Shown here in pieces: positions 6,482 to 34,847 of a stretch of DNA of 34,847 nt (the first letter of the stretch is position 1; each line of letters opens with the position of its first letter). Made by a program: the position numbers and the translations under genes. The stretch lies in the sequence record SRR31147125_2715; one strand, given 5' to 3'. The notes beneath the pieces are model-generated. The model did not search any database and was not told the origin of the DNA. It worked only from the letters and a program-made list of their open reading frames with translations.

Positions 6482-8503
6482 TTACGTCATTTTTACTAAT
6501 CGCGCAATCTCACTTCTTTTTTGGTTCTCCAGTCGTGTGATCTTGGGTTGTGCCAGGCCAAACAAGAATCCCTGCGCATATCTAACATTTAATTTATTTA
6601 CCATCTCACTCAAGAGAATATTACTCTTGTTATCAATACCTTCGACAATAACCCGAATGCCGCCTACGATTGCAATATTCCTCAAGCTATGCAGGTAACG
6701 AATGACCTGCATCCCAAGTTTATGTTCATAATGTAGCACATCCCGGTCTATTTTCACGTAACTGGGCAACAGGCGATTCAACCTGGAAATGGAAGAATAA
6801 CCAACTCCGAAATCATCAATCGCAAATTGAATCCCAAAAGATGAGGACAGATCTTCCATAAAACCCCTGAATTCATCAAGATTATGGGCAAGACCGCCAT
6901 CCAGATTTAATGAAGATATGAGAATCTTTTCGCTAATTTCAAAGATCACGCTATCATCATCTGACAATAACGTCTCTTGTACCAATTTTTTTAATTCATT
7001 GCGAAAAGTTGGACTCGTGATTGAGTCTGGATAGACATTCACCGAAAGAGGAGCCCTTTCATTCCTCCTTCGTGTCTGTGGAATATAGGATTCAAGTGCC
7101 CTTCTGAGGCACACCATATCGATCTGCGTCTGAAATTGAATGCCCCACAATTCAGCGGCCTTGAATAATTCAACAGGGATTTTTTTTGTTTTTTTATCAC
7201 GTGCCAGAGCTTCCCAACTTTTTATATAAATATCTTCCTCCGAATTGGCAAGATGCACAATTGGTTGAAAATAAATATCCACGTCAACCAAAGATTCACA
7301 AAAAGCATTAAATCGTTTATCGTACATTCCCGGACTCACAAATTTATAAACACCTTTAATACCATCATATATAGCGGATCGTATCACTTTTTCAGGCTTG
7401 AGTTTATGAAAACCATCCGATACTTTGTAAAGACTATTCAATATTGTTCCGATAACATTTTCAATATTATTTTTCTTTTCTTCAGAAAATCCATATAAAA
7501 CGATAATGGAAAATGTTATGTGATTGATAATGGGTACGATAACACAATATTCGTTTTTTAACACAGGAATATCCAGAGGCATAAACATACCATGAGGAGA
7601 ATCATGCTTGAACACATCCGGATTCATAGATCGTAATTTATTATTAAATTCAACAGCTGTCAAATTATCTGCAAAATGCATGGATTTGCTTTCAAAGATA
7701 ATTTGAGAGTGATTCTGCTTACTTTCAGCGTAGTAAACCAGGTCCACACCAAATAACTTTCGTAACACATCCATAATAAAAATACCGGATTTTTCATATT
7801 GATTGACATGACGCTGATTCAGCTCCTTTAACAGCTCTTCAATGAAATAATCATATTTATCTAACAGGCCGGGCAAGGGCGTCATCTCGGTACGTGAAGA
7901 TACGTCTATAGCAGATTCCTTTAATTTAGGCATACCAGAATGAGCGAAATACGTGGAAGCAGGTAATTGTAATTCTCTGAGCTTTTGTTTATACAGACCA
8001 TATTTCTGTTCTTTTTGAACTGGCGGGAAATTGGCTTGCCTGGTAAAATCCTCGATGGACACACGTAAACCTTCAGAAATATTATAAAAGGCAGCATCCG
8101 GATTTTTCCATTCGCTCACAGGTTTGGCATTTTGTGGCAGAATATTTAAACGGTTAAAAAAAGTATTATGCCATTCCACAGGACGAAGATAAATTGGAAT
8201 AACGAGCGCTTCTTCCGATTCATGACGTTCCATAGCGATATTAAGTTCATCGCCATAATAATAATCGGATTCCAGGAATTCGTCACTGATAAGAAACAGT
8301 ATAATCTGGGAGGACAAGATATGATCATCAATGTCGCTAATCAATTCTTTCTGTGCATTTATTCGATGATCATGCCACTCAAGTATAAATCCCTGATGCC
8401 TTAAAAAATTGAGCCGTTTTACGAGTTGGTTTCGAAATTCTTCATCTTTATGGGAGTATGAAAAAAATATCTTGATTGGGTAAAAAAGTGAATTCACCTG
8501 CAT
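6482..8503 (-). CDS. TIR domain - GAF-like region - EAL (c-di-GMP phosphodiesterase) fusion protein
   Basis: N-terminal TIR_2 motifs KIFFSYSHKD, ILFLISDEFLESDYYYGDEL and VIPIYLRPVEW. C-terminal EAL motifs YFQPIV, WEALAR, LSVNV, FEISE, IDDFGVGYSS, VKIDR, VEGID and QGFLF. Confidence 0.88.
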   Translation of the reverse strand: MQVNSLFYPIKIFFSYSHKDEEFRNQLVKRLNFLRHQGFILEWHDHRINAQKELISDIDDHILSSQIILFLISDEFLESDYYYGDELNIAMERHESEEALVIPIYLRPVEWHNTFFNRLNILPQNAKPVSEWKNPDAAFYNISEGLRVSIEDFTRQANFPPVQKEQKYGLYKQKLRELQLPASTYFAHSGMPKLKESAIDVSSRTEMTPLPGLLDKYDYFIEELLKELNQRHVNQYEKSGIFIMDVLRKLFGVDLVYYAESKQNHSQIIFESKSMHFADNLTAVEFNNKLRSMNPDVFKHDSPHGMFMPLDIPVLKNEYCVIVPIINHITFSIIVLYGFSEEKKNNIENVIGTILNSLYKVSDGFHKLKPEKVIRSAIYDGIKGVYKFVSPGMYDKRFNAFCESLVDVDIYFQPIVHLANSEEDIYIKSWEALARDKKTKKIPVELFKAAELWGIQFQTQIDMVCLRRALESYIPQTRRRNERAPLSVNVYPDSITSPTFRNELKKLVQETLLSDDDSVIFEISEKILISSLNLDGGLAHNLDEFRGFMEDLSSSFGIQFAIDDFGVGYSSISRLNRLLPSYVKIDRDVLHYEHKLGMQVIRYLHSLRNIAIVGGIRVIVEGIDNKSNILLSEMVNKLNVRYAQGFLFGLAQPKITRLENQKRSEIARLVKMT

Positions 8504-9706: not shown

Positions 9707-10774
9707 ATGACTCTCATATACAAATCAATCAACACAATACTTATTCTTTTGAGTTTTTCACTGGTTCTTTACGCTCAGGACGAATTTTTCGAACCACATT
9801 CTACTATTGGTGGATATGGTGAATTGCATTATAATGACGATAGAACAAACGATAAGAAAATCCTCGATTTTCACAGATTTGTCTTGTTTTACGGTTATAC
9901 ATGGAATGATAAATGGTCCTTTAATTCCGAAGTAGAACTGGAACACAATTTTGTCAAAGGAGGACAAGGCGAACTGGAGTTAGAACAGGCCTATATCGAT
10001 TTCCATCCTTCAGAATATATTAGCTTTCAGGTTGGTGTTGTACTTCCATCTGTTGGACTCGTAAATGAATATCATGAACCGCCAAGATTCCTCAGTGTTG
10101 AAAGACCTGATTATGCCAAAAATATCATTCCCACAACATGGTTTGGCAATGGAGCCAGTGTATATGGTTCAGTAAAAGGCTTTGAATATAAAGCGACTAT
10201 TATGGAAGGTTTGAATGCGGATAATTTCAGCGCCAGTTCCGGAATAAGAGGTGGCCTCCTGAAAGGTTATAAAAGCAATGCAGAAGAATTGTTGTATAAT
10301 TTCAGATTAGACTATACAGGTCAATTGGGTGCACGAGTGGGTCTTTCTTATTCTTACAATGACGCTCTCTCTACAACAAACGGAACGATTGGCACCAGCA
10401 TTTTTGAAGCACATGCCCGATATCAGGCTCATAATATCTACAGTGTATTGGAATATGGTAAAATATCTTATGATACCGGCGATCTGGAATCATCCAAGGG
10501 ATTTTATATTGATCTCGGTTATAATGTCGGCTCATTTTTCAATTTCAAAACAGAACTCATTCCCTGGTTTAGATATACCGACCATAATACAGCACATAAA
10601 ACCAAAGCGGGTGGAGATCAGGATAAAGAATTTCACTTTACAAAATGGATGGTAGGACTATCTGTCAAGCCAATACCCAGTGTTGTTTTCAAGATTGATT
10701 ATGGCGTTCGTCAAAGAGAACTCGATGACGCAAGAACAAAGCTCTTTAATCTGGGTGCGGGTTATATGTTCTAA
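9707..10774 (+). CDS. Outer-membrane beta-barrel porin (OprO/P-like family)
   Basis: Signal peptide; IGGYGELHY, DFHRFVLF, SEVELEH and ELEQAYIDF motifs; alternating beta-strand pattern; C-terminal Phe (LGAGYMF); AAGGAG RBS. Confidence 0.8.
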   Translation: MTLIYKSINTILILLSFSLVLYAQDEFFEPHSTIGGYGELHYNDDRTNDKKILDFHRFVLFYGYTWNDKWSFNSEVELEHNFVKGGQGELELEQAYIDFHPSEYISFQVGVVLPSVGLVNEYHEPPRFLSVERPDYAKNIIPTTWFGNGASVYGSVKGFEYKATIMEGLNADNFSASSGIRGGLLKGYKSNAEELLYNFRLDYTGQLGARVGLSYSYNDALSTTNGTIGTSIFEAHARYQAHNIYSVLEYGKISYDTGDLESSKGFYIDLGYNVGSFFNFKTELIPWFRYTDHNTAHKTKAGGDQDKEFHFTKWMVGLSVKPIPSVVFKIDYGVRQRELDDARTKLFNLGAGYMF

Positions 10775-10785
10775 AAAAACAACTA

Positions 10786-10818
10786 CCCGGCCAGGATACA
10801 CCCACGTTCTGGCCGGGG
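10786..10818. other. GC-rich intergenic stem-loop between the porin and FMN-binding genes
   Basis: CCCGGCCAG(G)...(T)CTGGCCGGG inverted repeat with no U-tract. Confidence 0.5.
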
Positions 10819-10833
10819 ATTCAATTAAAGGCT

Positions 10834-11376
10834 TTGATAATGATCATAAAAAAACTTTTATTTATTCTCTTTTTCGTGCCCGTCATGGCCCTATCTGAAA
10901 GCCTGAAAGAGCAAGCTGAACAGGTCATTTTGAATCAGATGGGGACGGACGTCTCTCTGCACTTTGAAAAATACGACATTCCGGCAGATATTAAAACCCG
11001 CGTTCAAAATCAAAGCCGACAAAAATTTTACAGCCGTTTTGTCTATTTTTGGAAGATAACAAAAAACGATTCCCCGGTCGCACATGCCTTTCTTGATAAT
11101 GTTAAGGGGAAATCCGCGCTCATAACTTTTCTGGTGATTCTGGATAAAAATAATCAGATTCACTTTACAGACATACTGAAATACAGAGGATCACACGGCA
11201 GGAATGTAACACACAGAGGCTGGCTCGATTTATTTAATGGTAAAGATATGCATTCTGAATTCAATTATGGCGGGAACATTGATGCTGTGAGTGGAGCCAC
11301 TATTTCTGCACATGCCATGATTAAAGGGGTAAAAAAATGTCTTTACTTGTTTAAAGAAATACAACTAGCCGAATAA
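10834..11376 (+). CDS. Exported FMN-binding domain protein (ApbE flavinylation substrate, RnfG/NqrC-like domain)
   Basis: Signal peptide and the C-terminal flavinylation motif IDAVSGATISA. The exact start codon is uncertain. Confidence 0.85.
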   Translation: MIMIIKKLLFILFFVPVMALSESLKEQAEQVILNQMGTDVSLHFEKYDIPADIKTRVQNQSRQKFYSRFVYFWKITKNDSPVAHAFLDNVKGKSALITFLVILDKNNQIHFTDILKYRGSHGRNVTHRGWLDLFNGKDMHSEFNYGGNIDAVSGATISAHAMIKGVKKCLYLFKEIQLAE

Positions 11377-12573: not shown

Positions 12574-13194
12574 TTACAAAATCAATACCCGATCTCCAAC
12601 ATAAACTTCAGGATAACGAACATTATTACCATTGAGTTTCTCAAGAACGACTACATTAGAATAATTTCCCGATAATTTAAATCTACCCAGAGACCGAAAT
12701 TTATGATGAACCCTATCCAGACTTTTTATTTCGAGAATTCTGGAAAACCGATGAATGCATGTTTCATCATCACACTGTACAATAACCAATTCAGGTATCA
12801 AATTGACAACAGTCCCCAAGTATGTCGGTTTAGAAAAGTGGGCATCACCTGGCTTTACCCGGGGATTCACCTTAGCTGTATATTCCAGTCTTGAAATTTC
12901 ATTGGACGTTACTGGTCTTTTGATCAACCTGCCCGGATTCATTTTTGAGTGAACAATTTCAATCTTTTGGGATTGCACGTTACCATTCGTTACATCACGT
13001 AAATTAGACTTTTCCTCAGGATTGTCGCTGAAAAATTCTTTTATAAAATTTGTTGTGTCATCAACCGCCTCTTTAGGATCACATTTAATATCAACCCAGC
13101 CTAAAGAGACCAGAACCAGAAAACCCACGATCACATAGAATATTTTAAAAGGAAAAACAAGAATCCCTTTAAAATATCTCATCAAGTTTATCAT
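12574..13194 (-). CDS. Hypothetical membrane-anchored protein with a beta-rich C-terminal domain
   Basis: Strong RBS AAAGGAGGGG, an N-terminal TM helix, and PGD...LGTV and VGDRV motifs typical of small beta-barrels. Confidence 0.7.
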   Translation of the reverse strand: MINLMRYFKGILVFPFKIFYVIVGFLVLVSLGWVDIKCDPKEAVDDTTNFIKEFFSDNPEEKSNLRDVTNGNVQSQKIEIVHSKMNPGRLIKRPVTSNEISRLEYTAKVNPRVKPGDAHFSKPTYLGTVVNLIPELVIVQCDDETCIHRFSRILEIKSLDRVHHKFRSLGRFKLSGNYSNVVVLEKLNGNNVRYPEVYVGDRVLIL

Positions 13195-13316
13195 GTTTCA
13201 CCCCTCCTTTCATTGGGTTTTAGATGACCCCACGCACCACACCCATACTTTTTATTTTAAAGCCCCATAGCTCCGATTTTACTGATGGACATCCTCCTCA
13301 TTCTTATCTGCAGAAG

Positions 13317-13373
13317 AAAAAAAAGGCCACACAGAAAAGGATACAACGGAGTACATCCAAATTTGCGCGGCCT
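13317..13373 (-). terminator. Intrinsic terminator-like long hairpin
   Basis: AGGCCGCGCA pairs with TGTGTGGCCT, with an inner GGATGTA/TGTATCC stem, running into a T8 tract. Confidence 0.6.
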
Positions 13374-13450
13374 CGGGAATTCAGGAATCAGGGCTTAATG
13401 CCTCAGTTCTTTTATCTCAGGACCTTAAATTTACGATTTTAATTTACATT

Positions 13451-13966
13451 CTATAGCTGTAATACATTCTCCCTATTTAATCTCTTTGCCTTGATCCTTA
13501 CCGGCAATTCGATTTCAACAACAATTCTATACCCCAATTTCCTGTTCTTGCCAACCTGGATCTCTAATATATTGCCCCTGATTTTTCCCAGCATCCTGCT
13601 GGAGGTCTCGGACAATTTCACTTTTTGCGTGCTATCCGCTGGTATAACTGTTAATTTTTGTGGTTTATTAAACATGATATAGAGCGGCTTGAGTGCATGG
13701 TTTTCGTTTTCAGAGAAAGACACTTTTCGAATAGTCCCATGAATTGGAAGTTCCACGTCAACAAGTATCTTTCGACCACTATGAGTCATATTCACGACCT
13801 GTCTCTCAAGCCAAGCACCTGCTACAAATCCGAGACACCTTTTCAAGCCAGAATTTTCAATGATATTTACTTTTTGTCTTTTTGACGGATCGATTCCCTG
13901 GAGGTTAAAGCTCTCACCCTCGTAAAGATGCATCTCTTTTACGTAAATCCCCGCATAAACAGTCAC
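13451..13966 (-). CDS. Hypothetical protein with an internal domain duplication
   Basis: GTG start after GGGGAG; two copies of QKV...R.LG...G..LE.QV...G.+I+V++ELP. Confidence 0.7.
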   Translation of the reverse strand: MTVYAGIYVKEMHLYEGESFNLQGIDPSKRQKVNIIENSGLKRCLGFVAGAWLERQVVNMTHSGRKILVDVELPIHGTIRKVSFSENENHALKPLYIMFNKPQKLTVIPADSTQKVKLSETSSRMLGKIRGNILEIQVGKNRKLGYRIVVEIELPVRIKAKRLNRENVLQL

Positions 13967-13989
13967 AATTTGCTCCCCGATATAAGTAA

Positions 13990-14652
13990 TTAGTCATTCA
14001 GATTATCATCAATCCAGTGTAAAAGCGTTTCTGTAACTTTTGTACCTTTTATGAGTTTATCATCATGAATGATAAAAATCCGTTGATGGTCTTTTATCAG
14101 TTCAGCCAATTCCTTTAATACATTTTTATTTTTTTCGAGCATGGAATTGATAAAATTGCGTTTATCATAAACACTGATGACGCTGACTCTTTTTTTAAGT
14201 GCTTTTTCAAATGTCGTTCCCAACAACCGCTCTGTTTCGAGATAATTAAATCCTTCCGGCCACTTTTGATAAAACTTGTCCGACACTTCGTTAATGACCC
14301 AAATATGATCCATCTTTTCCCACTCAATTCCGCGGGTTATGGCTTCCTGGCGAACATATCGGGTCAATTGGCGCCAGATCACTTTTTCATCAATATTTTT
14401 TTTGGAATCTTTCTTTTTTCTCGATTTAAAAATGGCCTCTTCAATATTTCTCACCACAAATCGATATTCAACAGCAAACATCATTTTTGTTTTTTCCTTG
14501 CTGCTGGTCAAATTCTTTTGTAATCCGGCTGCCACGTGCCAGGCTCTGGCTCTGGTTATCAACACAACCATCTCATTTACGGCGCCCTGTACAATCCGCT
14601 CCAGAATATTATGAAAAAGCTTTTCCCTGGTGGGTACATTATATTCATTCAA
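13990..14652 (-). CDS. Hypothetical protein, weak resemblance to the MEDS/DcmR sensory domain
   Basis: 220-aa ORF tightly coupled to its neighbours. The segment ETERLL...VISVYDKRNF...ELIKDH recalls the MEDS C-terminal pattern. Confidence 0.6.
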   Translation of the reverse strand: MNEYNVPTREKLFHNILERIVQGAVNEMVVLITRARAWHVAAGLQKNLTSSKEKTKMMFAVEYRFVVRNIEEAIFKSRKKKDSKKNIDEKVIWRQLTRYVRQEAITRGIEWEKMDHIWVINEVSDKFYQKWPEGFNYLETERLLGTTFEKALKKRVSVISVYDKRNFINSMLEKNKNVLKELAELIKDHQRIFIIHDDKLIKGTKVTETLLHWIDDNLND

Positions 14653-14657
14653 AAAGA

Positions 14658-15120
14658 TCAGAGTTCGTTCGCCCCTTCGGATCCCGAGTATATCTGTTTT
14701 TCCGGACTCTGATAACCCATGACACTGGACCGCATCAGTATCCTTTTATAAGCTTCTCTAAGTATTAATTTTTCATTTTCATCTTGCATGTTTTCCAGTT
14801 TTTCTATTAATTGCTCTTTATCGATCTTTTTACCCAGTTCCTCAATAGCTGCTTTGATATTTCTTCTACCAGACCCACTTTCTTTATCCGAATCCGGTTG
14901 GGCAAAATCCTTTAATAAAAGTTCCATTATCTTTAAATCAGTGCGGGTGTATTTTTTTCTCATAAACGTCTCCCTTGACTCTTACCGGATAAACGATTCC
15001 TGTTTCGACCAGATAAAGCAACAGACGTTGATCTATTTTATCTTCAACCAAATCCAACTCTTTGCATTTGGACTTTAATATTGTTAGAAATTCATTTGAT
15101 GTGTATAGTTTTCTGGGCAT
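14658..15120 (-). pseudogene. MerR-like HTH regulator split by a 1-nt frameshift (or two coupled small ORFs)
   Basis: ORF1 ...QRLLLYLVETGIVYPVRVKGDVYEKK and ORF2 KKYTRTDLKIMELL join into a MerR-type winged HTH if one A of the A7 run (plus-strand T7, 14952-14958) is removed. Confidence 0.5.
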
Positions 15121-15352
15121 GAGAACTATCAAACTTTTTTGTAATAATTAAAATTTTTACGTAAAATATTTCTATAATATGTAACATTATATTTATTACA
15201 ATATATTTCAATTTATTTGTAAAATTAAAAAATATCTGTGTTTTATAATAATTGTTTACTTTTTCTGATACGTTAAAAGCATTTTCACAGAATTGACACC
15301 ATTTGTGTTTTGCATTGATTAACAAAAAAAGCATCAGTGGGATGGCGAGTGT

Positions 15353-15480
15353 GCAAGGGGTTGAAATCCCTTGTGATTTCAGCTTTGCTCTATGCTGATT
15401 CATAAAGGTTTAGTTTGGTTTATTACATTTTTTGAGTTTTTTAACGTCCAACCTTGAGGCAAGGGTTTGAAACCCCTTGT
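15353..15480. repeat. Pair of 22-nt REP-like palindromes
   Basis: GCAAGGGGTTGAAATCCCTTGT (15353-15374) and GCAAGGGTTTGAAACCCCTTGT (15459-15480). Confidence 0.7.
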
Positions 15481-15655: not shown

Positions 15656-16608
15656 ATGGCGCCACACAGAGTGAATCGTCTTCTTGCCCTGTTTAATCGT
15701 CTTTTCGTGTTCTGGGTTATACTGGCTGGTTTGGCAGCCTTTTATTTTTCCGGATTTTTTATCCCTTAAAAAAAATATATGGAACTGTTTTTCGCCATCA
15801 CCATGTTTGGTGTGGGAATGGTGCTTAATCCAACTGATTTTGTTGCTATATTTAAAAAGATCAGGGTCGTATTGGTTGGCGTTCTGGCTCAGTTTTCGAT
15901 CAAACCGATTTGTGCGTTTTTGATTTCCAAAGTTTTTACCTTTTCAAAAGATAATTCTCTTGGACTCATTTTGGCTGGTTCCGCACCCGGAGCTATGGCA
16001 AGCAATGTGCTGAGTTATCTGGCTGGAGCAGATGTCGCTTCTTCTGTTTCTCTGACCACGGCTTCAACGCTGCTGGCACCTGTGCTGACGCTCCTTTTGA
16101 CTCTTCTTCTCGCACACACCCTATTGGACATTCCATTTTGGGGTATGTTTTTCAGTGTAACCCGCATGGTCCTGATTCCACTTTTTCTGGGTATACTTTT
16201 AAAAAGAATCTTTAACGAAAAGGTTCAACCTGTTTCCAGGATTTTCCCAGCGATTTCTACAACTTTTATCGCTTTTATATGTGCTTTGGTAATCGCATAA
16301 CACAAAAAATTTCTATTAATGATCAATCCCTGAATCTTTTCGCTGCCATTATCCTGAATATTTCAGGTTTTATTCTTGGTTACATAGCGAGCCAGTTATT
16401 TAGATTTGATCTCTTGAAAAAACGCGCTCTTTCTATAGAAATCGGCATGCAAAATGCCGGTCTGGGCAGTGTCCTGGCTTTAAAACATTTCAGTGAAAAA
16501 GCAGCCCTGCCGGCTGTTATATTTGTCTTTATTTGTATTTTTAGCGCCTCTCTGCTCGTGCCCTTGTGGGCGAGATCCAGCCGGAAAAAATCAACGTCCG
16601 CTACATAA
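15656..16608 (+). pseudogene. Bile acid:sodium symporter (BASS/SBF) family, disrupted
   Basis: Motifs MFGVGM, GVLAQF, APGAMASNV and SIEIGMQNAGLG. In-frame TAA at 15767, TAA at 16298, TGA at 16331 and a frameshift near 16340. Confidence 0.85.
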
Positions 16609-26201: not shown

Positions 26202-26741
26202 TCACCTGTGCATCGACTTTAATTCCCGTTCATATATAGAGTTATACCCTAACTTTTTAAAAAGGTTGGTATAACGCTCTTCTACCAGATTTCGAAAACT
26301 ATCCCGCGCAGAGATAGTAACCTTGTGGACAAGAGCAAGAGTGCGGTCGGAATAGGTCTCCAACTCGCATGAAAAATAATTTTGAAATCCTGCCCCTTTA
26401 TCTTCAAAGGTACGAGGATATTTCGCATGCATTTCTTTCATCCACTCATTTTCTATAGAAACAATCTCATGGATCAATTCATTGTCATTAAGGGGTGGAA
26501 TTATATTTTCCATGCGAGCGTATTTTTCGGTCATAAAATTCCGATCCTCCTGAACAGCTTTTTCGAGATCGTCAAAATAGGACTCGAGCACCTCTTCAGG
26601 CAGAACAGAATAGCTCATCCAACGCATCAGTCGAAAAACTTTTAGTTCATCCTGGCAAGGGGATGGTTCGGATGCTTTGACATTCTGAAACATATTTTGT
26701 TCAATGTCGATTATGTGCTTTATCAATTCATCATTCGTCAT
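26202..26741 (-). CDS. DUF4125 family protein
   Basis: E..MFQNV....SPCQD...F..MR....LESY..DL..A....RNFMTEKYARM and YFSCELETYS; ATG 26741 follows GGAG. Confidence 0.8.
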   Translation of the reverse strand: MTNDELIKHIIDIEQNMFQNVKASEPSPCQDELKVFRLMRWMSYSVLPEEVLESYFDDLEKAVQEDRNFMTEKYARMENIIPPLNDNELIHEIVSIENEWMKEMHAKYPRTFEDKGAGFQNYFSCELETYSDRTLALVHKVTISARDSFRNLVEERYTNLFKKLGYNSIYERELKSMHR

Positions 26742-26797
26742 TTGTTTTCTCCAGGTACTATCTGTCGATGACATTCATATGAGACAGGTCTAAACAC

Positions 26798-28099
26798 CTA
26801 CAACTTGAACAAAAACTCGATGCGTGCCCAATCATAGCCATCTGCGTCATCAAAATAAAAATCACCAGGTATAAAATGTTCCCACAAGAGATGGCCGGAA
26901 ATATATTTATTAATCTTGTAATTTAATTTTCCAATAACCAAATCACCACGTGTGTTTCCGCTACCTCCGGGAAAAGCACTGCCATCCGGGTCCTGCGGCG
27001 CCATCAGGTGATGATAATCAAACTGGAAACTTAAATCCGGAGTAAAAACAAATTTTGCTGCTCCGTTTATGGATATTATATTCGACCAGTAAGCAACCTT
27101 GCCACCATTTTCACGAATTTGCGTATAGATATAGGATTCGCTCCACTTGGGCCAGCGGCTGAAAAGGGGATCCCAGCCCTCATAATCGGCTGTTGAGGGA
27201 TCATCACCGCTCAGGTAGATACTACCCAGTTTGAGCAATTTTGGCAGATAAAGAGCCGTCCAACTGGTTTTGTAATCCAGATGAAGATAGCTGCCAAGAG
27301 CCGTACGATCACCATCACCTTTATCACCAAATTGATAGGCAGCTTCGCCTGTAATTGATAAACGAGGCATAAGCGGAACACTCAATCTGGAACCCAAAGT
27401 AGTGATATGCGATTTTTCCGGATGAGAGTCTGTCTCTTTAATATTTTTTTGAATAACATAACTCTGTAAATTAACTTTACCGATGTCTCCGGCAAAATAG
27501 GCACCTATACCTTCTTCCGGTTGCTCGATTAATCTCTGATTTTCAACATCGTGTGCCATAACGAAATTTTCATCTGTTTCCGGTTGATATGTGTAAAACA
27601 GAGTTAATTTTTTATTTTTTGAAATAGTCCAGTCATAGCGAGCTGCATTAAAATAAATAGACCGCGATCCGTCAAGGGGATGTCCGTCCATAACCACAAA
27701 ACCTTCACCCAAAATAATATTCTGTCGGCCAAGGGTCATGGTTCCTGGAAGGACCTTGTCATTTTGCCATTTTGCGTATAATAAATCAACAAAGATTTCG
27801 CTATTTTTAAAATCTTTGCCTTCCGGGGCAAAATAATTACGAAATTCATTGGTCACTTTTAATCCGATTTCAAACTGTTTATTGGGAATCCATTGTCCCA
27901 TCACATTCGTGCGATGACGGGTAAATGTACTGGAAGCTCCAGCATCATTCGAAAGATGTATGGCATTGTCCCAGCTCACCATGCGAAACCGCTCCGCAAA
28001 ACTAAACTTGAATTTTGGTTGTTCATTTTCCTGTGCATAAATACTGCCGTTTAAAAAACAAGCTAATACGACGAGTGCTAATAAGTAATTCCTTTTCAT
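26798..28099 (-). CDS. Alginate-export (AlgE-like) outer-membrane beta-barrel
   Basis: Signal peptide; TLGRQNIILGEGFVVMDG, GEAAYQFG and YLSGDDPST..EGWDPLF; amphipathic C-terminal strand. Confidence 0.8.
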   Translation of the reverse strand: MKRNYLLALVVLACFLNGSIYAQENEQPKFKFSFAERFRMVSWDNAIHLSNDAGASSTFTRHRTNVMGQWIPNKQFEIGLKVTNEFRNYFAPEGKDFKNSEIFVDLLYAKWQNDKVLPGTMTLGRQNIILGEGFVVMDGHPLDGSRSIYFNAARYDWTISKNKKLTLFYTYQPETDENFVMAHDVENQRLIEQPEEGIGAYFAGDIGKVNLQSYVIQKNIKETDSHPEKSHITTLGSRLSVPLMPRLSITGEAAYQFGDKGDGDRTALGSYLHLDYKTSWTALYLPKLLKLGSIYLSGDDPSTADYEGWDPLFSRWPKWSESYIYTQIRENGGKVAYWSNIISINGAAKFVFTPDLSFQFDYHHLMAPQDPDGSAFPGGSGNTRGDLVIGKLNYKINKYISGHLLWEHFIPGDFYFDDADGYDWARIEFLFKL

Positions 28100-28203
28100 A
28101 ATCTACCCGCTCTTTTACATATAATGAATCATTCTCAATATTTTGCTCTATTTCTGCCTCTAATCCGAACGAACACGTTCTTTTCAAATCATGCGACCAG
28201 CTT

Positions 28204-29178
28204 CTAAAAGGGCGTTTCGTATCCTACAAAACAAACGAGTCCTTCATTTTCAATAATCCGTTTAAGATGCCGCATGTGTGAGTCTGCAGGTGGCTTTTGC
28301 TCGGCAAACTTGTATACCTGTCCAACCTGACGATATTTTGACTCGCCCAGACGATGAAAGGGAAGAATGTTTATCACTTCCAGGCCAATGTCTTTAACAA
28401 ATTGCGCCGTGGCTCTGATATTCTCGTCAGAATCATTTATCTCGGGTACAACAGGGATCCTGGGCACAATAAATCCATTCCAGTCAGCCTCTGCTAAAAG
28501 TCGAATATTCTTTAAGATCAGTTTATTGTTAACACCCGTGATTTCCAAGTGTTTTTGAGAGTCCATATGTTTGATATCGGTAAAAACCCAATCCACATAT
28601 TGTATCGCTTGCATAAAAAATTCTGTTGGAAGATTGGACGTGGTTTCAATACAGGTATGAATATAGGATTTTTTACATTCCTTTAATATTGCCAGCATAA
28701 AATCCCGCTGCATCAGGGGTTCGCCGCCGCTAAATGTGACTCCGCCACTGCCTCCCCAAAACTGACGGTCTCGCTGAAAAAGCCGCATTAATTCATTAAT
28801 TGAATAATATTTGCCGCTGAGCTCAATCGCCTCATTGTAACACGTTTCAATGCATTCATGGGTCTTACATTTATCACACATTTCCCTGTTAAATACCAGT
28901 TTGCCTTCTTTTGAAACGGAAACGGCATCGTAAGGACAGCTCTTAATGCATCTGCCACAGCATTTGCATTTGGTCTCGCGATACATGATCACTGGTTGAC
29001 GAAATAATCCTTCCGGATTACAGCACCAAATACAATGCAATGGGCAGCCGCTCATAAAAACCGTAGTCCGGGTACCCGGGCCATCGTGCACGGAATGTCC
29101 CTGGATATCAAAGACAAGGCCTTCAAGTTTCTTTTCTGGTGTGCTATCTGCAATTAATTCTTCTTCTGATGTATGCAT
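28204..29178 (-). CDS. hpdA: 4-hydroxyphenylacetate decarboxylase activating enzyme (radical SAM with ferredoxin insert)
   Basis: SVHDGPGTRTTVFMSGCPLHCIWCCNPE (CX3CX2C), Cys-rich insert CKCCGRC...C...CDKC...C...C, GGVTFSGGEP and LPFHRLG. The likely start is ATG 29178. Confidence 0.9.
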   Translation of the reverse strand: MHTSEEELIADSTPEKKLEGLVFDIQGHSVHDGPGTRTTVFMSGCPLHCIWCCNPEGLFRQPVIMYRETKCKCCGRCIKSCPYDAVSVSKEGKLVFNREMCDKCKTHECIETCYNEAIELSGKYYSINELMRLFQRDRQFWGGSGGVTFSGGEPLMQRDFMLAILKECKKSYIHTCIETTSNLPTEFFMQAIQYVDWVFTDIKHMDSQKHLEITGVNNKLILKNIRLLAEADWNGFIVPRIPVVPEINDSDENIRATAQFVKDIGLEVINILPFHRLGESKYRQVGQVYKFAEQKPPADSHMRHLKRIIENEGLVCFVGYETPF

Positions 29179-29340
29179 TTTTGTTTCACTTTCCATTCTC
29201 ATTGCGTCACAAGTGCCAATCAAATTGAACATACCATTAAAAGTCATTTTTTCACTCTTAATGGTATGCATTCATCTTTGGTATTTATTTTGCGATTCTA
29301 TGCAGGCGCAAAATAAATGTCCACATCATCTCTAATCCTA

Positions 29341-30651
29341 TTAACGTGCGGATTCCACAAACTCTTCAGTGGCTTTAACTGTCTTTGGTTTAGCGACCAA
29401 TGGCAGAGAAAGCGCCAGTAAGATAGATACAACAAAGGAACCCAGCGCATAGTAGATGGAATAGGTATAACTACCGGAAATATCCTTTAACAATCCACCA
29501 ATAAATGAGCCGGTGAAGGGGCCAATACCCATAACGATGAGTGTGGCCAATCCCCAAATTTTACCCAGCGTTTTTCGGCCATAAATAGCGCCGGTATAAC
29601 CAACAACGCCACCTGGTACGATCGCCCAATAAACAGCGAAAATAAAACAGGCGACATAAGCCCATGTCATGGACTGACCGGACATTAACAAAAACAAACA
29701 AGCCAGAACGCCTGTTGACGGACCAATAACCAACATGACTTTACGTCCCTTGGCTTCATGACCCACTTTTTGAACGATCTTGTCAGCAACAACGCCCATG
29801 ATAGGCATACTGAAAATTCCGATTAAACCTATAATGGCATATACATTGACAGCTGTATCACGTGCCCAACTCAAATCTGTGACCCAGTAGCTGACAACCT
29901 GTGTCCAGATAAGGAACTCGGCCATCATACTGGTTAAAAAAGTGAGGACAGCTGCCCAGATTGCGTATTTGGAAAAGGCTTCCTTGACACTCCAATCATA
30001 TTCCGTAGACGCAGCTTTTTTTCCACCTGCAGCAGGTATTTCACCAAAAGCTTTCATGTTGTAAGCTTCCGGACTCTTTTTTGCCAGAATCACGGCAACA
30101 ACAAGAGCGAAGAAAATTATAACGGCTAACAACTGCATGGTACCACGCCATAAATCAGTGGCATCACCCCGCAAAGTGGCTTTGGTAATATAAGCTAATA
30201 TAAACTGTGCCATTGGAGCACCGGCAAATGCGATTCCCCACATGGTTGCATAAGATTTTCCCACATACCATTTACGAACGGAAACTGTTGAAGTCACCCA
30301 GAGCATACCCGTAGCAACACCTGCCAAAAGCCCAAAAGTGAACAGATAGGCCAGATGGCTATTAACCAAACTGGTCGCATAAAAACCCAAACCACCAAAA
30401 ACCGCGGCAATAGCGTAAACCGGTTTTGTACCCCATTTATCAAGAATCATACCGCTGAAAAAAGCTGTAATAGCATAAAAGACCATCATCAGGGAATAAC
30501 CCAAAGTGACCTGCGCTTGAGACCAGCCCAGATCAGCGCTCATTGGGCCTTTTAAGATAGCAAACGTAGCCCGGTAACCAAAAAGGCAAAAGACTGCCAG
30601 CCAGGAAGCGGCTACGACCGACCAACCGAAACGTTTTGCATTATTATCCAT
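29341..30651 (-). CDS. MFS transporter, oxalate:formate antiporter (OFA)-like
   Basis: About 12 hydrophobic segments; motif A GMILDKWG and GVVADKI; VRKWY; ATG 30651 after GAGGAG. Confidence 0.88.
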   Translation of the reverse strand: MDNNAKRFGWSVVAASWLAVFCLFGYRATFAILKGPMSADLGWSQAQVTLGYSLMMVFYAITAFFSGMILDKWGTKPVYAIAAVFGGLGFYATSLVNSHLAYLFTFGLLAGVATGMLWVTSTVSVRKWYVGKSYATMWGIAFAGAPMAQFILAYITKATLRGDATDLWRGTMQLLAVIIFFALVVAVILAKKSPEAYNMKAFGEIPAAGGKKAASTEYDWSVKEAFSKYAIWAAVLTFLTSMMAEFLIWTQVVSYWVTDLSWARDTAVNVYAIIGLIGIFSMPIMGVVADKIVQKVGHEAKGRKVMLVIGPSTGVLACLFLLMSGQSMTWAYVACFIFAVYWAIVPGGVVGYTGAIYGRKTLGKIWGLATLIVMGIGPFTGSFIGGLLKDISGSYTYSIYYALGSFVVSILLALSLPLVAKPKTVKATEEFVESAR

Positions 30652-30673
30652 TCTATTCTCTCCTCGAAGTTTC

Positions 30674-30706
30674 AAAAAAGGAGGTACATATCTGCACCTC
30701 CTTTTT
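30674..30706 (-). terminator. Intrinsic terminator-like hairpin between hpdC and the MFS gene
   Basis: AAAAAGGAGGTGCA-GATA-TGTACCTCC-TTTTTT on the minus strand. Confidence 0.75.
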
Positions 30707-30716
30707 ATCGATTCAA

Positions 30717-30983
30717 TTACTTGTTTTCTTCATACATTTCACAAGTTGTGGCGACCAAATCCGGATAAGCCATAAATTTGGGCTCAGCCATTGAAGCCTG
30801 GCAAATGCCGATAAACTTGTCTGTTTCTTTAAAGTTTTTACAAAATTTACATTTTGGCATGATTTCATAACCTTCTGGTGCTTCAGAGTCTGCCAAAACG
30901 GTTTCTTTTGTTAAAAGATCCACTCCCTTTGTGACATCAGTAGGAGCGTAATTTCGTGCATCTTTATACAATATTCTTGCCAT
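30717..30983 (-). CDS. hpdC: 4-hydroxyphenylacetate decarboxylase small subunit (variant)
   Basis: 88 aa, 2 nt downstream of hpdB; D.TKG, MPKCKFCKNF, GIC and ATTCE match HpdC. Confidence 0.88.
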   Translation of the reverse strand: MARILYKDARNYAPTDVTKGVDLLTKETVLADSEAPEGYEIMPKCKFCKNFKETDKFIGICQASMAEPKFMAYPDLVATTCEMYEENK

Positions 30984-30985
30984 TT

Positions 30986-33700
30986 TTATACTCCTTCGTA
31001 TTCAGTTCTAGCAATCAATTCATCTTGAACGCCCTTACCAATCTCAACCCAGTACTGTGTAAAACCAGCTACACGTACCATCAAGTCCCGATATCTGTCA
31101 GGATGGTTTTGCGCGTCTACCAACACCTTTGAATCCACAATGTTATACTGAACATGGAAACCGCCTTTTCGCATATAAGCACGGGTTAATTCGAGTAATT
31201 TTTTGGATCCCTCAAGGCCTTTGATAGCACTTGGGTGAATCTTGATATTTAATTGCGAGTTTTGTGACATGGAATGATCCCAGATAGAAGCAGAGTTCAG
31301 GAGCGCAAAAGGACCATTTCTGTCTGTACCGGGATAAGCTGACAGAGAGGCATCAGCAAAGGTTGTTCCTGCCAATCGACCATCGATCGTGGCAACTGTA
31401 GCCGCACCCATGGCGCCATGTGTGGATACGGAAATCTGGCATGGATACATCGGATGAGCATAAAGTGATTCATAGTTGGAACAATCCGGACAGAAAAAGT
31501 TCTCCCATTCGAGAAGAATATTATCAACGTAAGGATCGTCATTTCCATATTTTGGTGCCTGCAAAGTCTTGAAATGCAACTTGTCATACTTGCCATCACT
31601 GTCTGCTCTTTTTTCCTGATCGGAAATAGAGAAAGAATTAACTTCCTGTGCAGTCTTGAAGCCAAAGTTCTCTTTCAAGGCGACTTTCATTTCGTCAAGT
31701 GATACTTCTTTATCATCGAAAACCAGTTTTTTAAGAGCAGCCATACTGTTAACAAAAGTAATGGTTCCGGCACTTTCCACATTAAATGTGGCGTTGTAGC
31801 GGTAACCAAGCTCATTAATCAGGTGGCCGGTATCCAGACAATCTGGTTTAAGCAATGACGTAATGATCGCCATATTATTTTTTCTCCAGATATCATGCTG
31901 GATATTGTTGGTCAGGGCCAACACATCAACGGTTTCCTGCCAGTACAATTTGTACTGTTCCCAAATTTCTTCATATGTTTCGAATTTTTTGTTATGTGGT
32001 TCGAAAACCTGTTCACCGGTTTTTTGATCAACACCGTTAAAAAGTGTTAATTCCAGTACTTTTGGCATGGAAATAAAGTGAACACCAACGCTGGTAGGTT
32101 GTCCTGCACCGCCAGGAATCCAGTATTCTTTGCCATTCAAGTGTAAAGGTTTCCAGGTACATGGAGATGTTTCCAGACATCCACCGATAGCCCAGGCGCG
32201 AGCGTCTTCAACATCCATACCTTCCGGACCATATTGTGTCTTTAAAAATTCCTGCGCGATAGGACTGTTCATAAATGCAGGATAGCCGGCACCTGTTTTG
32301 ATAACTTCCATAGCCAACATTAAGAAATCTTCGGGAAGTTTTTCATCATATAACAGAGCGATTGTGGACTGTGGCATGGCGTTATTTGCAGCTGCTTCCA
32401 GAATCAGGTACTCCAGTCTGTTAGTAGCAGGTTTGCCGAATTTATCCAAACCACCGACAGAGACGGTGTTAAAAGTATTTCCGGAGAGCACACCACCGAC
32501 AACACCGACAGAGGCAAAACAGTCGATCGATGTTTTAACAACACGATCCTGTTCCAACAGTTCAAGAACCTCATCTTCGATAATTCTGCCAGCTTCAATA
32601 TCCTGTTCAAAATAAGGATACAGTACCTGTCCGATTCTACCAGGAGACATACCGGAAATGGCGTCTTCATTCAACACAGCCAGATGAATGGTTTCAATCA
32701 TCTGGAAAGCTTCAATAAAGGTTCTTGCTGGTTTATAAGCAAGCCATTCCAGGCGTTCGGCCATTTCTTTATATTCTTTTTTCTGTTGTTCGTCTTTTTC
32801 AATGCCTTCCAGTCGACGAGCTTCTTTAGCATAATTGAGGATCCAATTCTGCAAGCCTTGCATAGCAAGAATAACAGCTTCGTAATTATACAGACGATTC
32901 GTACCCACCATACCATCACCATCTGCTCGACCAGCGACTTTGTCTTTCATCTCCTGGGCTATTTTGATAATACCTTCAATACCATATTCCAGGGGATAAT
33001 AGTAATTAATTACTTCACGACCCTGTGGCAGAGTAAAACCGGAATCAAACATACAGACGATATTACGCATAATTTTTTCTTTGGTGCTGTAATTTGGCAC
33101 CATTTTCTCATATTTGTTGCCCAAATCGTCAACAGATTTTCCATACCACATTCTGGCCAATTTTAACAGAGCGGGAATTTCTTCCTGGCGCATACCGAAT
33201 TTACCAGCAATAGAAACCACTTTACCAAAACTCTTTGGTACATTTCCGCCACCCTGTCCGAATTTAGAGTGTTCATCTACGGATGCAGAACCACGTTTTA
33301 AAGCTTCCTGGTAAAATTCATCTTCCTTGGCCATGTAAAATCCCTCAGACAACCATGGCATCGGAAATGAGCCGCGAAAATAAGGAGCTTTACGCATGGT
33401 CAAAAGTTCGCCCGGAATAATAACCGGGGTTGAATGAGAAAAGGCAGCCTTTAGTGCCATTGCTCTTCGTACCACAGGAACTTCATTGTCATGTAACATA
33501 TATTCGCGTGTGTACCAATAAGGGAATTCATTACTTGCTGAGGACAGTGTGTCCATAAAAATATCTTTCAGCTTTTGAACGCGTAGATGCGGTTCCCTTT
33601 TAATCTCGCGATCCGTCAGCGCTTCCGGGGCTTTTCCACCAGCCTGAAAATCCATTGGAATACCGGCATCGGCCATAACATCTTTTAGTGTCTTAGCCAT
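30986..33700 (-). CDS. hpdB: 4-hydroxyphenylacetate decarboxylase glycyl-radical large subunit
   Basis: Gly loop [12 protein letters not shown], Cys loop GGCLETSP, and HpdB-specific blocks [49 protein letters not shown] and [17 protein letters not shown]. Confidence 0.95.
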
Positions 33701-33779
33701 TTAACTACCTCCTGTTAATTAGTTCTTCAAATCGTTTCTCGGTTCCATATGAGAGCCTTTGTAAATAATGCCATCCCTT

Positions 33780-33796
33780 ATTCACAAATTATGCCA
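33780..33796 (-). promoter_or_regulatory. sigma54 (-24/-12) promoter candidate for hpdB
   Basis: TGGCATAATTTGTGAAT: good -24 element, deviant -12 (GA for GC). The adjacent regulator is a sigma54 activator. Confidence 0.55.
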
Positions 33797-33826
33797 CAAT
33801 AATTTTGCGCACCTTATTTAACATAT

Positions 33827-33839
33827 TATCAACAACTTG
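33827..33839 (+). promoter_or_regulatory. IHF-binding site
   Basis: TATCAACAACTTG exactly matches WATCAANNNNTTR and lies between the promoter and the activator sites. Confidence 0.6.
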
Positions 33840-33879
33840 CAGAAAAAAATATTTTTACAATAACGACTTTTTTTTCAGG

Positions 33880-34044
33880 TGTCTTCAAACGTGACACTTT
33901 TTTATATTTTTGATGATTAGGTTAACATATTCAAATTCAAGCTTAAGGTGCTTTTAATTATTACTTTACACTGTTTTCTTATGAGTCCTTGATAATTTTC
34001 CTCTCACCTGTCTATGTACGTGACACCTGTCATGATCATAGACA
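33880..34044. promoter_or_regulatory. Three TGTC-N9-GACA palindromes (putative activator binding sites)
   Basis: Sites at 33880-33896, 34009-34025 and 34028-34044; the first two share ACGTGACAC. Confidence 0.7.
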
Positions 34045-34197
34045 AATTTTATTGGAAAACGACTTTTCAGCTCTATTTTGGGTTAGAATTCATGTATTAT
34101 GTGTGTTGGCTACCATTAGCAGGTAAAAAAAACTTTTAAATGTTCAACAAAAAGAGTATATTTGCAGAATTCAGTTTAGTTAAAATGGGTTATTAAA

Positions 34198-34847
34198 ATG
34201 CCTGTCGCTAAATATCATTTATTAAAAAACATTGCCGAGAATAAAAATCTCATACGAAAAATTCTGGATGTTTCAGCTGACGGTTTAATGGTTGTAAACC
34301 GTGAGGGAATTATTGTTTATGTCAATCAAAGTTTTGTTGACATTCACAAGATACCGGAAAAAGAGGCTGTCGGACGACACGTAACTAAAATAGTCGAAAA
34401 CACACGTATGCATTTCGTTGCCGAAACAGGTATAGCTGAAACGGATGCCATACAAACCATCCACGGCCGGGAAGTGATTGTTTCCAGAATTCCGCTTATT
34501 GAGGGCGATGAATGTATCGGCGCGGTTGGGAAAATCCGTTTTCTGGATGTTGGTGAAGTAAAAGACCTGACTGAAAGAGTTAATAAAATTGAAAAGCAAT
34601 TAAAGCAAACCCCTCTAAAACATACTGATACCCATTATACCTTCGCTGATATTGTCGCTTTTTCCGCTACAAGTTTAAATGCAAAAAAATCTGCTTATCG
34701 TTCTGCCACGTGTGATGCCTCTGTTCTTTTACTTGGTGAAAGTGGTGTTGGTAAAGAAGTGTACGCCCACAGTATCCATAATTTAAGCAAACGCAACAAG
34801 GGCCCGTTCATACGTTTGAATTGTTCAGCAATCCAGCAGGAACTTTT
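34198..34847 (+). CDS. PAS-domain sigma54-dependent transcriptional activator, truncated by the window end
   Basis: Absent from the ORF track. MPVAKY...[25 protein letters not shown] (PAS), then YTFADIV and [19 protein letters not shown]...[11 protein letters not shown] (AAA+). Confidence 0.93.

Follow-up and report, generated by a model that had tools for sequence, protein, structure and literature searches.

The stretch of DNA considered here (34,847 nt of sequence record SRR31147125_2715, hereafter the window) carries, at positions 26,202-34,847, an hpd locus, predicted to encode the glycyl radical enzyme (GRE) 4-hydroxyphenylacetate decarboxylase (HPAD) together with a carrier, an outer-membrane barrel and a protein of the DUF4125 family. 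According to the list of open reading frames (ORFs), six co-oriented ORFs occupy the minus strand from 33700 to 26202 and correspond, in this order, to HpdB, HpdC, a carrier of the major facilitator superfamily (MFS), HpdA, an AlgE-like barrel and DUF4125, the successive gaps being of 2, 41, 69, 104 and 23 nt. This arrangement, as well as a divergent activator with PAS and sigma-54 domains, had been described in an initial annotation of the same stretch, and all of these genes were indeed found at that place. The locus is a variant of a known system, for which that annotation was right and its interpretation half right; the most valuable outcome of the analysis is DUF4125 as a candidate accessory protein of GREs. 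The features of the locus are the following:

34198..34845, plus strand: PAS and sigma-54 AAA+ activator (Pfam Sigma54_activat, PAS); 216 aa seen, cut by the window end
33701..34197, minus strand: regulatory intergenic region, with a -24/-12-like element and two repeats
30986..33700, minus strand: hpdB, predicted glycyl radical 4-hydroxyphenylacetate decarboxylase large subunit; 904 aa, NF033715
30717..30983, minus strand: hpdC, predicted HPAD small subunit; 88 aa, NF033716
29341..30675, minus strand: MFS carrier, MCT/SfMCT-like, presumed to take up 4-hydroxyphenylacetate (4-HPA); 444 aa, PF07690 118.6 bits
28204..29271, minus strand: hpdA, radical SAM activase with a ferredoxin-like insert; 355-aa maximal ORF, NF033717/TIGR02494
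26798..28099, minus strand: AlgE-like outer-membrane barrel with a signal peptide, modelled with 18 strands; 433 aa, AlphaFold2 (AF2) model and Foldseek
26202..26774, minus strand: DUF4125, predicted cytoplasmic and all-helical, with two repeats of about 85 residues; 190 aa, PF13526

The scan for terminator-like sites, whose yield was at or below the shuffled expectation, gave none in the last two gaps (hpdA to barrel and barrel to DUF4125); the calls of a sigma-70 scan of the locus were also at or below the expectation from shuffled sequence. Two outer-membrane barrels and a secretin, all encoded within the window, support the initial claim that the host is a diderm. As to its affiliation, the signals point in different directions: PrkA had matches of only 22-32% in ten candidate genomes, the acyl-CoA synthetase has its nearest relative in a Desulfobacterium MAG (metagenome-assembled genome; 52%), and the barrel clade and the complete synteny lead to two genomes of a phylum sample built around a Bacteroidales MAG.

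Decarboxylase core, regulatory region and carrier

The locus was compared with a set of 72 loci containing HpdB relatives (58-86% identity, one genome per species), drawn from Desulfobacterota, Acidobacteriota, Aminicenantes, Bacteroidota, Neisseriales, a Leptospirales metagenome-assembled genome (MAG), Clostridia, Coriobacteriia and others, and searched with the window proteins and with profiles. A search with a barrel profile in 301 genomes of the phylum around a Bacteroidales MAG added two hpd genomes, G350 and G586. Both feature the exact order of the window, a sigma-54 activator divergent from hpdB-hpdC-MFS-hpdA-barrel-DUF4125, and their proteins are respectively 83 and 81% (HpdB), 49 and 45% (barrel) and 52 and 48% (DUF4125) identical to those encoded in the window.

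HpdB scores 1579.4 bits against NF033715, the NCBIfam equivalog model of HPAD (cut-off 1150); the second-ranked model, that of indoleacetate decarboxylase (IAD), yields 670.6 bits, below its cut-off of 1100. Aligned to the C. scatologenes enzyme (2Y8N_A; residues 37-902, E 8.7e-298), HpdB keeps Cys503-x-Glu505 (GGCLE), His536 (GVHF), Glu637 (NVE) and Gly873 (RVAGF), which we take to be the thiyl loop, the His and Glu binding the phenol, and the glycyl site. The Cys-x-Glu loop, the GVHF histidine and the NVE glutamate had been singled out in the initial annotation, correctly so, because all of them are kept in this alignment. On these grounds HpdB is assigned as the large subunit of 4-hydroxyphenylacetate decarboxylase, its activity being predicted. 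Two glutamates, Glu1 and Glu2, have been named in HPAD, and the text of PMC6181972 presents Glu2 and the small subunit as marks of this enzyme.

HpdC passes NF033716 (72.6 bits, cut-off 50) and keeps the four C-terminal cysteines. In an alignment that includes 64 relatives, however, Y, A, D and P replace H3, C6, C19 and C36 of 2Y8N_B, residues which presumably bind a cluster. Among the hpdC genes of L001-L072, the same loss of the N-terminal ligands is seen in Desulfobacterota, Bacteroidales/Tannerella, Neisseriales and Atopobium copies, while the motif is kept in copies from Clostridia, Terriglobia, Holophagales and Olsenella. The pattern suggests that copies lacking these residues represent a one-cluster form of the small subunit. 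Two tandem hpdC copies are found in genome G586 (L123:11828-12350; L123:6442-7389 was likewise noted).

HpdA scores slightly below the cut-off of its specific model (NF033717, 406.2 bits versus 420) and well above that of the general model of GRE activases (TIGR02494, 325 bits versus 174). It features the radical SAM motif CxxxCxxC and a ferredoxin-like insert, and its Cys motifs are invariant in the HpdA alignment; to judge from the TIGR02494 score, HpdA is clearly a GRE activase. Its true start is probably near 29178, because the match to NF033717 begins only at residue 49.

The best NCBIfam match of the divergent activator is PrdR-like. Homologues with 50-61% identity lie beside hpd in twelve loci (L001, L002, L003, L005, L006, L008, L058, L059, L062, L071, L122 and L123). 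The canonical pattern TGGCAC-N5-TTGC was not found in the region 33701..34197 of the window. The region contains a -24/-12-like element, TGGCATAATTTGTGAA, at 33796-33781 (TGGCAT-N5-GTGAA, at -96), which resembles the elements that L062 and L002, the nearest relatives, have at the corresponding position; canonical TGGCA-N-TGC elements lie 62-80 nt upstream of hpdB in many relatives. The element is presumed to be functional, and the operon to be under sigma-54 control. Two GTGTCACGT repeats, located further upstream (34026-34018 and 33897-33889), might bind the activator. A strong AGGAGG precedes hpdB in the window, as it does in G350, unlike what is seen in the Bacteroidales loci.

The initial annotation had likened the MFS protein to carriers of the OFA family. 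Membership of this family was rejected: the score against the OFA model TIGR00890 is 51.5 bits, for a cut-off of 374.85. The score against NF049980, the SLC16/MCT-like model including SfMCT, is 125.7 bits, also far under the cut-off (320), and the best matches in the PDB are SfMCT itself (6G9X, E 2.6e-14) and human MCT1/2 (E ~1e-4). SfMCT and OxlT, both carriers of small carboxylates, share the MFS fold with the window protein, which nevertheless falls far below the cut-offs of both families. The SfMCT stretch FSNAATR, where the substrate is presumably bound, corresponds to FSMPIMG in the window protein, at a position aligned with low confidence. The antiport and energy conservation proposed in the initial annotation find no support in these family scores and stay a conjecture.

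An MFS transporter, proposed to import arylacetates, is contained in both the HPAD and the IAD clusters of Olsenella scatoligenes, and HPAD has been recorded for the diderm Tannerella forsythia, as reported in the text of PMC6181972. Neither an hpd operon in a diderm nor an hpd operon with an MFS gene can thus be presented as new, because both are described there. The new part is the extension of the operon by the barrel and DUF4125 genes, the core operon and the MFS gene being already known from that text.

Extended operons and the outer-membrane barrel

The MFS gene lies between hpdC and hpdA in 49 of the 72 loci, including those of Gram-positives. A barrel adjoins hpdA in 13 of the 72, and also in L122 and L123; DUF4125 is found in 24, or in 26 out of 74 when the two added genomes are counted. 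The full gene order of the window was found again in Aminicenantes and Acidobacteria MAGs, and other groups feature different arrangements. DUF4125 precedes the barrel in Bacteroidales, the last two genes being swapped, and lies directly 3' of hpdA, with no barrel, in Desulfobacterota. Olsenella-type Atopobiaceae carry it after the MFS gene, an arrangement seen in 5 of the 10 informative Atopobiaceae loci, among them the characterised HPAD cluster of O. scatoligenes. In Holophagales, two tandem DUF4125 paralogues are located upstream of hpdB; such pairs, divergent from hpdB, were observed in the Holophagales/Thermoanaerobaculia loci L005, L008, L040, L057, L058 and L059. The barrel and DUF4125 are thus kept beside hpdB in relatives, a point on which the initial annotation had made its proposal depend, although in a subset of lineages only. 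Since an association kept while gene order shuffles is a usual mark of a functional link, such a link of both genes to hpd is indicated.

A locus was regarded as informative if its core was flanked on each side by about 2 kb or more; this holds for 55 of the 74, the others being too incomplete (16) or having short flanks (3). Within this group, 41 loci have the MFS gene, 13 of them with a barrel and 23 with DUF4125, while neither gene occurs in the 14 loci, mostly from Terriglobia, that have no MFS gene. The restriction of DUF4125 to MFS-bearing loci corresponds to a Fisher p of 1.2e-4, not corrected for kinship. The extended operon, with barrel and DUF4125, is one of several operon versions and is found only where the MFS gene is present, and therefore only where the substrate would be imported.

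Compared with the clostridial HpdBCA/CsdBCA systems (Clostridioides difficile and Clostridium scatologenes; 2Y8N, 2YAJ), the window has the same large subunit, small subunit and dedicated activase. It differs in that its HpdC is devoid of the N-terminal His/Cys ligands, in that an MFS gene (between hpdC and hpdA), a porin, DUF4125 and a sigma-54 activator are added, and in its diderm host. Liu et al. 2018 (PMC6181972) described the HPAD and IAD clusters of Olsenella (Tractidigestivibacter) scatoligenes, which share with the window an MFS gene in the cluster. At the HPAD locus (L043), DUF4125 comes right after the MFS gene, divergent there, and the activase gene is, unlike in the window, divergent and upstream; the cluster has no porin because its host is a monoderm. 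The DUF4125 gene of this cluster is not mentioned in the text of PMC6181972, figures and supplements aside.

Some loci feature other peculiarities. L009, labelled as an uncultured Clostridia MAG, carries a barrel, and in both trees its genes fall among those of Aminicenantes; either its taxonomic label or the binning of the MAG looks doubtful. Acyl-CoA-ligase genes of the AMP-binding type lie beside hpd in L015 (7700-9710 and 15626-16963), L062 (15585-17722) and L010 (8738-10318). The L015 ligase is phenylacetate-CoA-ligase-like (AMP-binding + AMP-binding_C_2), and genes with ACT domains are found in L015 and L062. These neighbours hint at further metabolism of aromatic acids at those diderm loci.

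The barrel of the window scores 21.6 bits against the Pfam model Alginate_exp (PF13372), below the cut-off of 25.2, which is passed by two relatives of its clade (L124, 33.0 bits; L126, 37.4 bits). Its AF2 model, built on 14 relatives, features a signal helix and 18 strands (pLDDT 76). When this model was searched with Foldseek, the top match was AlgE (3RBH, E 4.9e-16, TM 0.66-0.70), and AlgE chains took ranks 1-16, followed by the Campylobacter MOMP and by OccK/OprD channels. The OccK/OpdK matches have E values around 1e-10 and include an OpdK entry solved with vanillate. As modelled, the window protein shares with AlgE and the Pseudomonas OccK/OprD channels an 18-stranded monomeric barrel. 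It differs from them in sequence, being about 12-13% identical, and in context, no genes for the synthesis of alginate having been met in the window or related loci; its neighbours are the arylacetate decarboxylase in the window and chemoreceptors in some relatives.

Strong full-length matches to the barrel were found in six genomes of the phylum sample, three of them hpd-linked and three not. The three barrels of the latter type are 44-46% identical to that of the window, and thus as close to it as the hpd-linked ones. They lie directly after genes for methyl-accepting chemotaxis proteins (L124:2093-3463, L125:7929-9302 and L126:7995-9584), with CheW in one case; the pairing of chemoreceptor and barrel is recurrent. 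HpdB was not found in these three genomes. In a maximum-likelihood tree, the window barrel and five of these proteins form a supported clade (95/96), and the tree otherwise tracks organism groups. The barrel is therefore regarded as a lineage-conserved channel, modelled with 18 strands, which is repeatedly but not exclusively hpd-linked. The initial annotation had gone further, suggesting an aryl-acid substrate. In favour of this, the linkage recurs in some lineages; on the other hand, the clade is not dedicated to hpd, 3 of 6 close relatives being located beside chemoreceptors. Helped by the structural kinship to the carboxylate-specific Occ channels, an aryl-acid substrate would be a reasonable guess by analogy, and no more.

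DUF4125 and glycyl radical enzymes

The DUF4125 protein of the window matches PF13526 with 166.8 bits (cut-off 25), over profile positions 2-196 of 197. Its AF2 model, derived from 16 hpd-linked sequences, is all-helical (pLDDT 90.9), and the protein has no membrane or signal features. Searches for a similar fold gave no match at E <= 0.001 in the PDB with Foldseek, a best Z of 6.5 over 61 residues in a wide VIA-align search, corresponding to the noise of helical proteins, one match at E 0.094 with a sequence profile of the PDB, and nothing usable in the ESM Atlas. The two halves of the protein can be aligned to each other (hhalign probability 97.9%, E 3e-13) and share the motifs IxxxExxM/W and RNxxxE(K/R)Y: in terms of sequence, DUF4125 consists of a module of about 85 residues that has been duplicated in tandem. 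Eight polar residues, E25, C40, Q41, R51, E137, S142, T145 and N162, are kept across 69 members, and this family-wide conservation suggests a defined site. In a tree of the family, the diderm hpd-linked copies form three supported clades within one loosely supported group, and the Atopobiaceae copies are set apart by a long branch of their own.

Members of the family occur outside hpd loci as well. In a sample of 301 Desulfobacterota genomes, 30 carry DUF4125, and the neighbourhoods of 20 of the 33 matches were inspected, 8 kb on each side, the other 13 being left out. A GRE or GRE activase was found within this distance in 8 of the 20 loci, compared with 0.63 expected, by our own calculation, from the 157 Gly_radical matches in the 87.6 Mb of the same 20 genomes (Poisson p = 3.5e-7). 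These GREs are mostly uncharacterised enzymes of the PFL2 type, accompanied by PrdR-like sigma-54 activators and by TRAP or MFS transporters. At the level of whole Desulfobacterota genomes, a GRE is present in 28 of the 30 with DUF4125 and in 81 of the 271 without it (Fisher p = 8e-12). In the phylum of Clostridium uliginosum (a Bacillota-type sample), 10 out of 301 genomes have DUF4125, and 5 of the 10 loci have a GRE or activase at a distance of about 8 kb or less, versus 0.28 expected by the same kind of calculation; four of these five flank GRE microcompartment loci, with genes for bacterial microcompartment (BMC) shell proteins, aldehyde dehydrogenase, GRE and activase. The effect is thus seen in two phyla and for several GRE classes.

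A partner gene, DUF4037, adjoins DUF4125 in 10 of 10 loci of the C. uliginosum phylum and, with or without TPR, in 11 of 20 loci in Desulfobacterota. A DUF4037 gene was also observed directly after the hpd-linked DUF4125 in genome G586. The search for longer relatives of DUF4125 returned 51 fused forms, of which 40-odd, about 770-820 residues long, have the composition DUF4037-TPR-DUF4125. Among the longer relatives, the best match is a GRE activase fused to DUF4125. One protein of its cluster, P0052 (490 aa; NCBI MAG labelled Promethearchaeota), combines in frame an activase whose CxxxCxxC motif is intact with a DUF4125 domain at residues 312-480, and P0053, an unfused relative of 321 residues, stops exactly at the fusion junction.

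In a limonene-degrading Syntrophobacteraceae MAG, lrcL (DUF4125) and lrcM (DUF4037) are listed directly 3' of bssE, the gene for a GRE chaperone, with expression recorded for both proteins (PMC12583861). An existing classification places DUF4037 among the helical C-terminal domains of nucleotidyltransferases of the aminoglycoside type (PMC3710099). Within the texts naming DUF4125 or DUF4037, no link to GREs was met beyond the lrcL/lrcM listing, although supplementary gene tables may name them, and no function for DUF4125 is proposed in the literature found on the family. BssE, GrcA/YfiD and lrcL/lrcM resemble the case described here in being small non-catalytic genes kept beside genes for a GRE or its activase; in contrast to BssE and GrcA/YfiD, DUF4125 has neither an AAA+ domain nor a glycyl motif, nor a match to a solved fold.

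DUF4125 had been given no role in the initial annotation; the present data tie it to GRE systems generally, rather than to transport. As a tentative proposal, to which we attach somewhat less than even odds, DUF4125 may be a previously unrecognised component of GRE systems, which installs, preserves, quenches or regulates the glycyl radical together with the activase or the GRE. It would do so alone, as in hpd, or together with DUF4037 (KNTase-like) and TPR, and would serve HPAD, microcompartment-bound GREs and PFL2-type GREs, in bacteria and in the MAG labelled Promethearchaeota.

Proposed working, alternatives and significance

The locus is best explained, with a rough probability of 0.6, as a sigma-54-controlled module for the uptake and decarboxylation of 4-HPA in a diderm, DUF4125 being an accessory protein of the GRE. 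The activator would sense an aromatic acid and switch on a single transcript. 4-HPA would cross the outer membrane via the monomeric AlgE/Occ-like channel of 18 strands, and the inner membrane via the MCT-like MFS protein, an import step earlier proposed in the literature for Gram-positive clusters. By homology, HpdA, with S-adenosylmethionine (SAM) and a reductant, would install the radical on the HpdB residue equivalent to Gly873, and HpdB-HpdC, as assigned by homology and conserved residues, would convert 4-HPA into p-cresol and CO2. DUF4125 would not be a part of transport, but would most likely work on the activase or the GRE, or together with one of them, as a factor for maturation, protection or regulation, a role for which neighbourhood, cross-genome co-occurrence and gene fusion argue. 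With respect to the two-membrane module for uptake and decarboxylation imagined in the initial annotation, the hpd operon with its carrier, the AlgE-fold barrel and DUF4125 are supported and the uptake module is plausible, while the claim of an antiporter conserving energy is unsupported and the specificity of the porin uncertain.

Various observations weigh against this reading, and other explanations of the same genes have to be considered along with them. The reading drawn from the initial annotation involves an OFA-type electrogenic antiporter or uniporter: 4-HPA would enter as an anion, decarboxylation would consume a proton and neutral p-cresol would leave, generating a proton-motive force, and the barrel and DUF4125 would serve this cycle or the export of p-cresol. 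The chemistry is plausible by analogy with the oxalate/formate and malolactic systems, the carrier always lies inside the operon, between hpdC and hpdA, and barrel and DUF4125 occur only in MFS-bearing operons. The low TIGR00890 score (51.5 versus 374.85) nevertheless makes such a cycle quite improbable, as does the fact that the nearest characterised relatives of the carrier, SfMCT and MCT1/2, are H+-coupled monocarboxylate symporters. DUF4125, moreover, is devoid of membrane or signal features and accompanies GREs of unrelated chemistry, and an exchanger would be unnecessary because p-cresol is neutral and membrane-permeant. As for the barrel, its nearest clade (95/96) mixes two hpd-linked with three chemoreceptor-linked proteins, one match per genome, the latter from genomes in which no HpdB was found. 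Because the clade is mixed, the barrel may be a lineage porin that is only sometimes hpd-linked, general or otherwise specialised, lying beside hpd by chance or loose co-regulation and not serving as an aryl-acid channel. This would agree with a barrel tree that largely tracks organism groups and with the absence of the barrel from 15 of the 28 informative diderm loci bearing the MFS gene, all from Desulfobacterota, Tannerella, Neisseriales and the Leptospirales MAG, in whose flanks Pfam annotation revealed no other channel gene. We hold it to be unlikely, if a serious contender, in view of the linkage to hpdA, in variable order, that recurs across four or more deep groups (Aminicenantes; Holophagae/Thermoanaerobaculia; Bacteroidales; G350/G586/window), of the gap of only 23 nt to the next gene, and of fold neighbours that include substrate-specific carboxylate channels.

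A comparable doubt concerns DUF4125, whose constant partner is DUF4037 with or without TPR, not present in the window. For about half of the DUF4125 genes inspected, the surrounding 8 kb contain no GRE, and the statistics given above overstate independence, since GRE-rich anaerobes are related and kinship was not corrected for. No DUF4125 was found anywhere in the genomes of T. forsythia, Crenobacter caeni and C. uliginosum, all of which have hpd, so that the protein appears dispensable for HPAD; besides, the fusion with an activase comes from one 90% cluster. DUF4125 might then be unrelated to the radical enzyme and form, with DUF4037 and TPR, a general stress, small-molecule-modifying or regulatory module of anaerobes that is often met in catabolic islands, where it could, for instance, help the cell to withstand p-cresol, limonene or other toxic hydrophobic products. 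The constancy of DUF4037 (11/20 and 10/10) and the dominance of DUF4037-TPR-DUF4125 proteins among the 51 long forms would fit such a module, as would the variety of the other DUF4125 neighbours (carboxyltransferases, old yellow enzymes, TRAP transporters) and the classification of DUF4037 with aminoglycoside nucleotidyltransferase C-terminal domains (PMC3710099). It is harder to reconcile with GRE proximity and co-occurrence far above expectation in two phyla, with the direct fusion of activase and DUF4125, and with the position of DUF4125 directly after the activase both in most hpd loci and in L146, a non-HPAD GRE locus, and we consider it rather unlikely. Finally, the enzyme might act on another arylacetate, such as indoleacetate or phenylacetate, or the conversion of 4-HPA into p-cresol might be the first step of a complete anaerobic oxidation. 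Desulfobacteraceae are reported to grow on both 4-HPA and p-cresol (PMC11887813), and the hpd genes of L015 and L062 have phenylacetate-CoA-ligase-like genes as neighbours. The failure of the IAD model (670 versus 1100) where the HPAD model passes, the retention of the HPAD-specific Glu637, the presence of the small subunit and the fact that no p-cresol-degrading genes were seen in the window render this improbable as well.

Other regions of the window contain features unconnected to the hpd locus. A protein of 673 residues, encoded at 6482-8503 (minus strand), features an unusual pairing of an N-terminal TIR domain with a C-terminal EAL cyclic di-GMP phosphodiesterase. The region 9707-11376 (plus strand) encodes another outer-membrane barrel (OMP_b-brl / Porin_O_P) and, after it, an FMN_bind-domain protein. 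At 12574-15403 (minus strand), none of five consecutive ORFs (206, 171, 220, 101 and 103 aa) matches a Pfam family at E <= 0.001. A gene of the SBF family (bile acid:sodium symporters), at 15779-16608 (plus strand), apparently consists of two overlapping ORFs of 173 and 109 aa; the family match falls in the first only and covers the first part of the profile, and the gene may represent a frameshift or a pseudogene.

p-Cresol is bacteriostatic and a uraemic toxin, and present understanding of its formation comes, to our knowledge, from the clostridial system of three genes alone. Operons found in environmental diderms are richer, with a dedicated regulator, a carrier, a predicted channel and an extra protein. 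The barrel is a candidate channel for small aromatic acids, with moderate evidence as to its substrate, in phyla whose outer-membrane transport is almost unknown. Activating GREs and preserving them in vitro is a long-standing practical problem, for which DUF4125 would provide a conserved and so far unstudied helper candidate, found beside activases in several phyla, fused to one of them, and whose effect on the radical can be directly tested.

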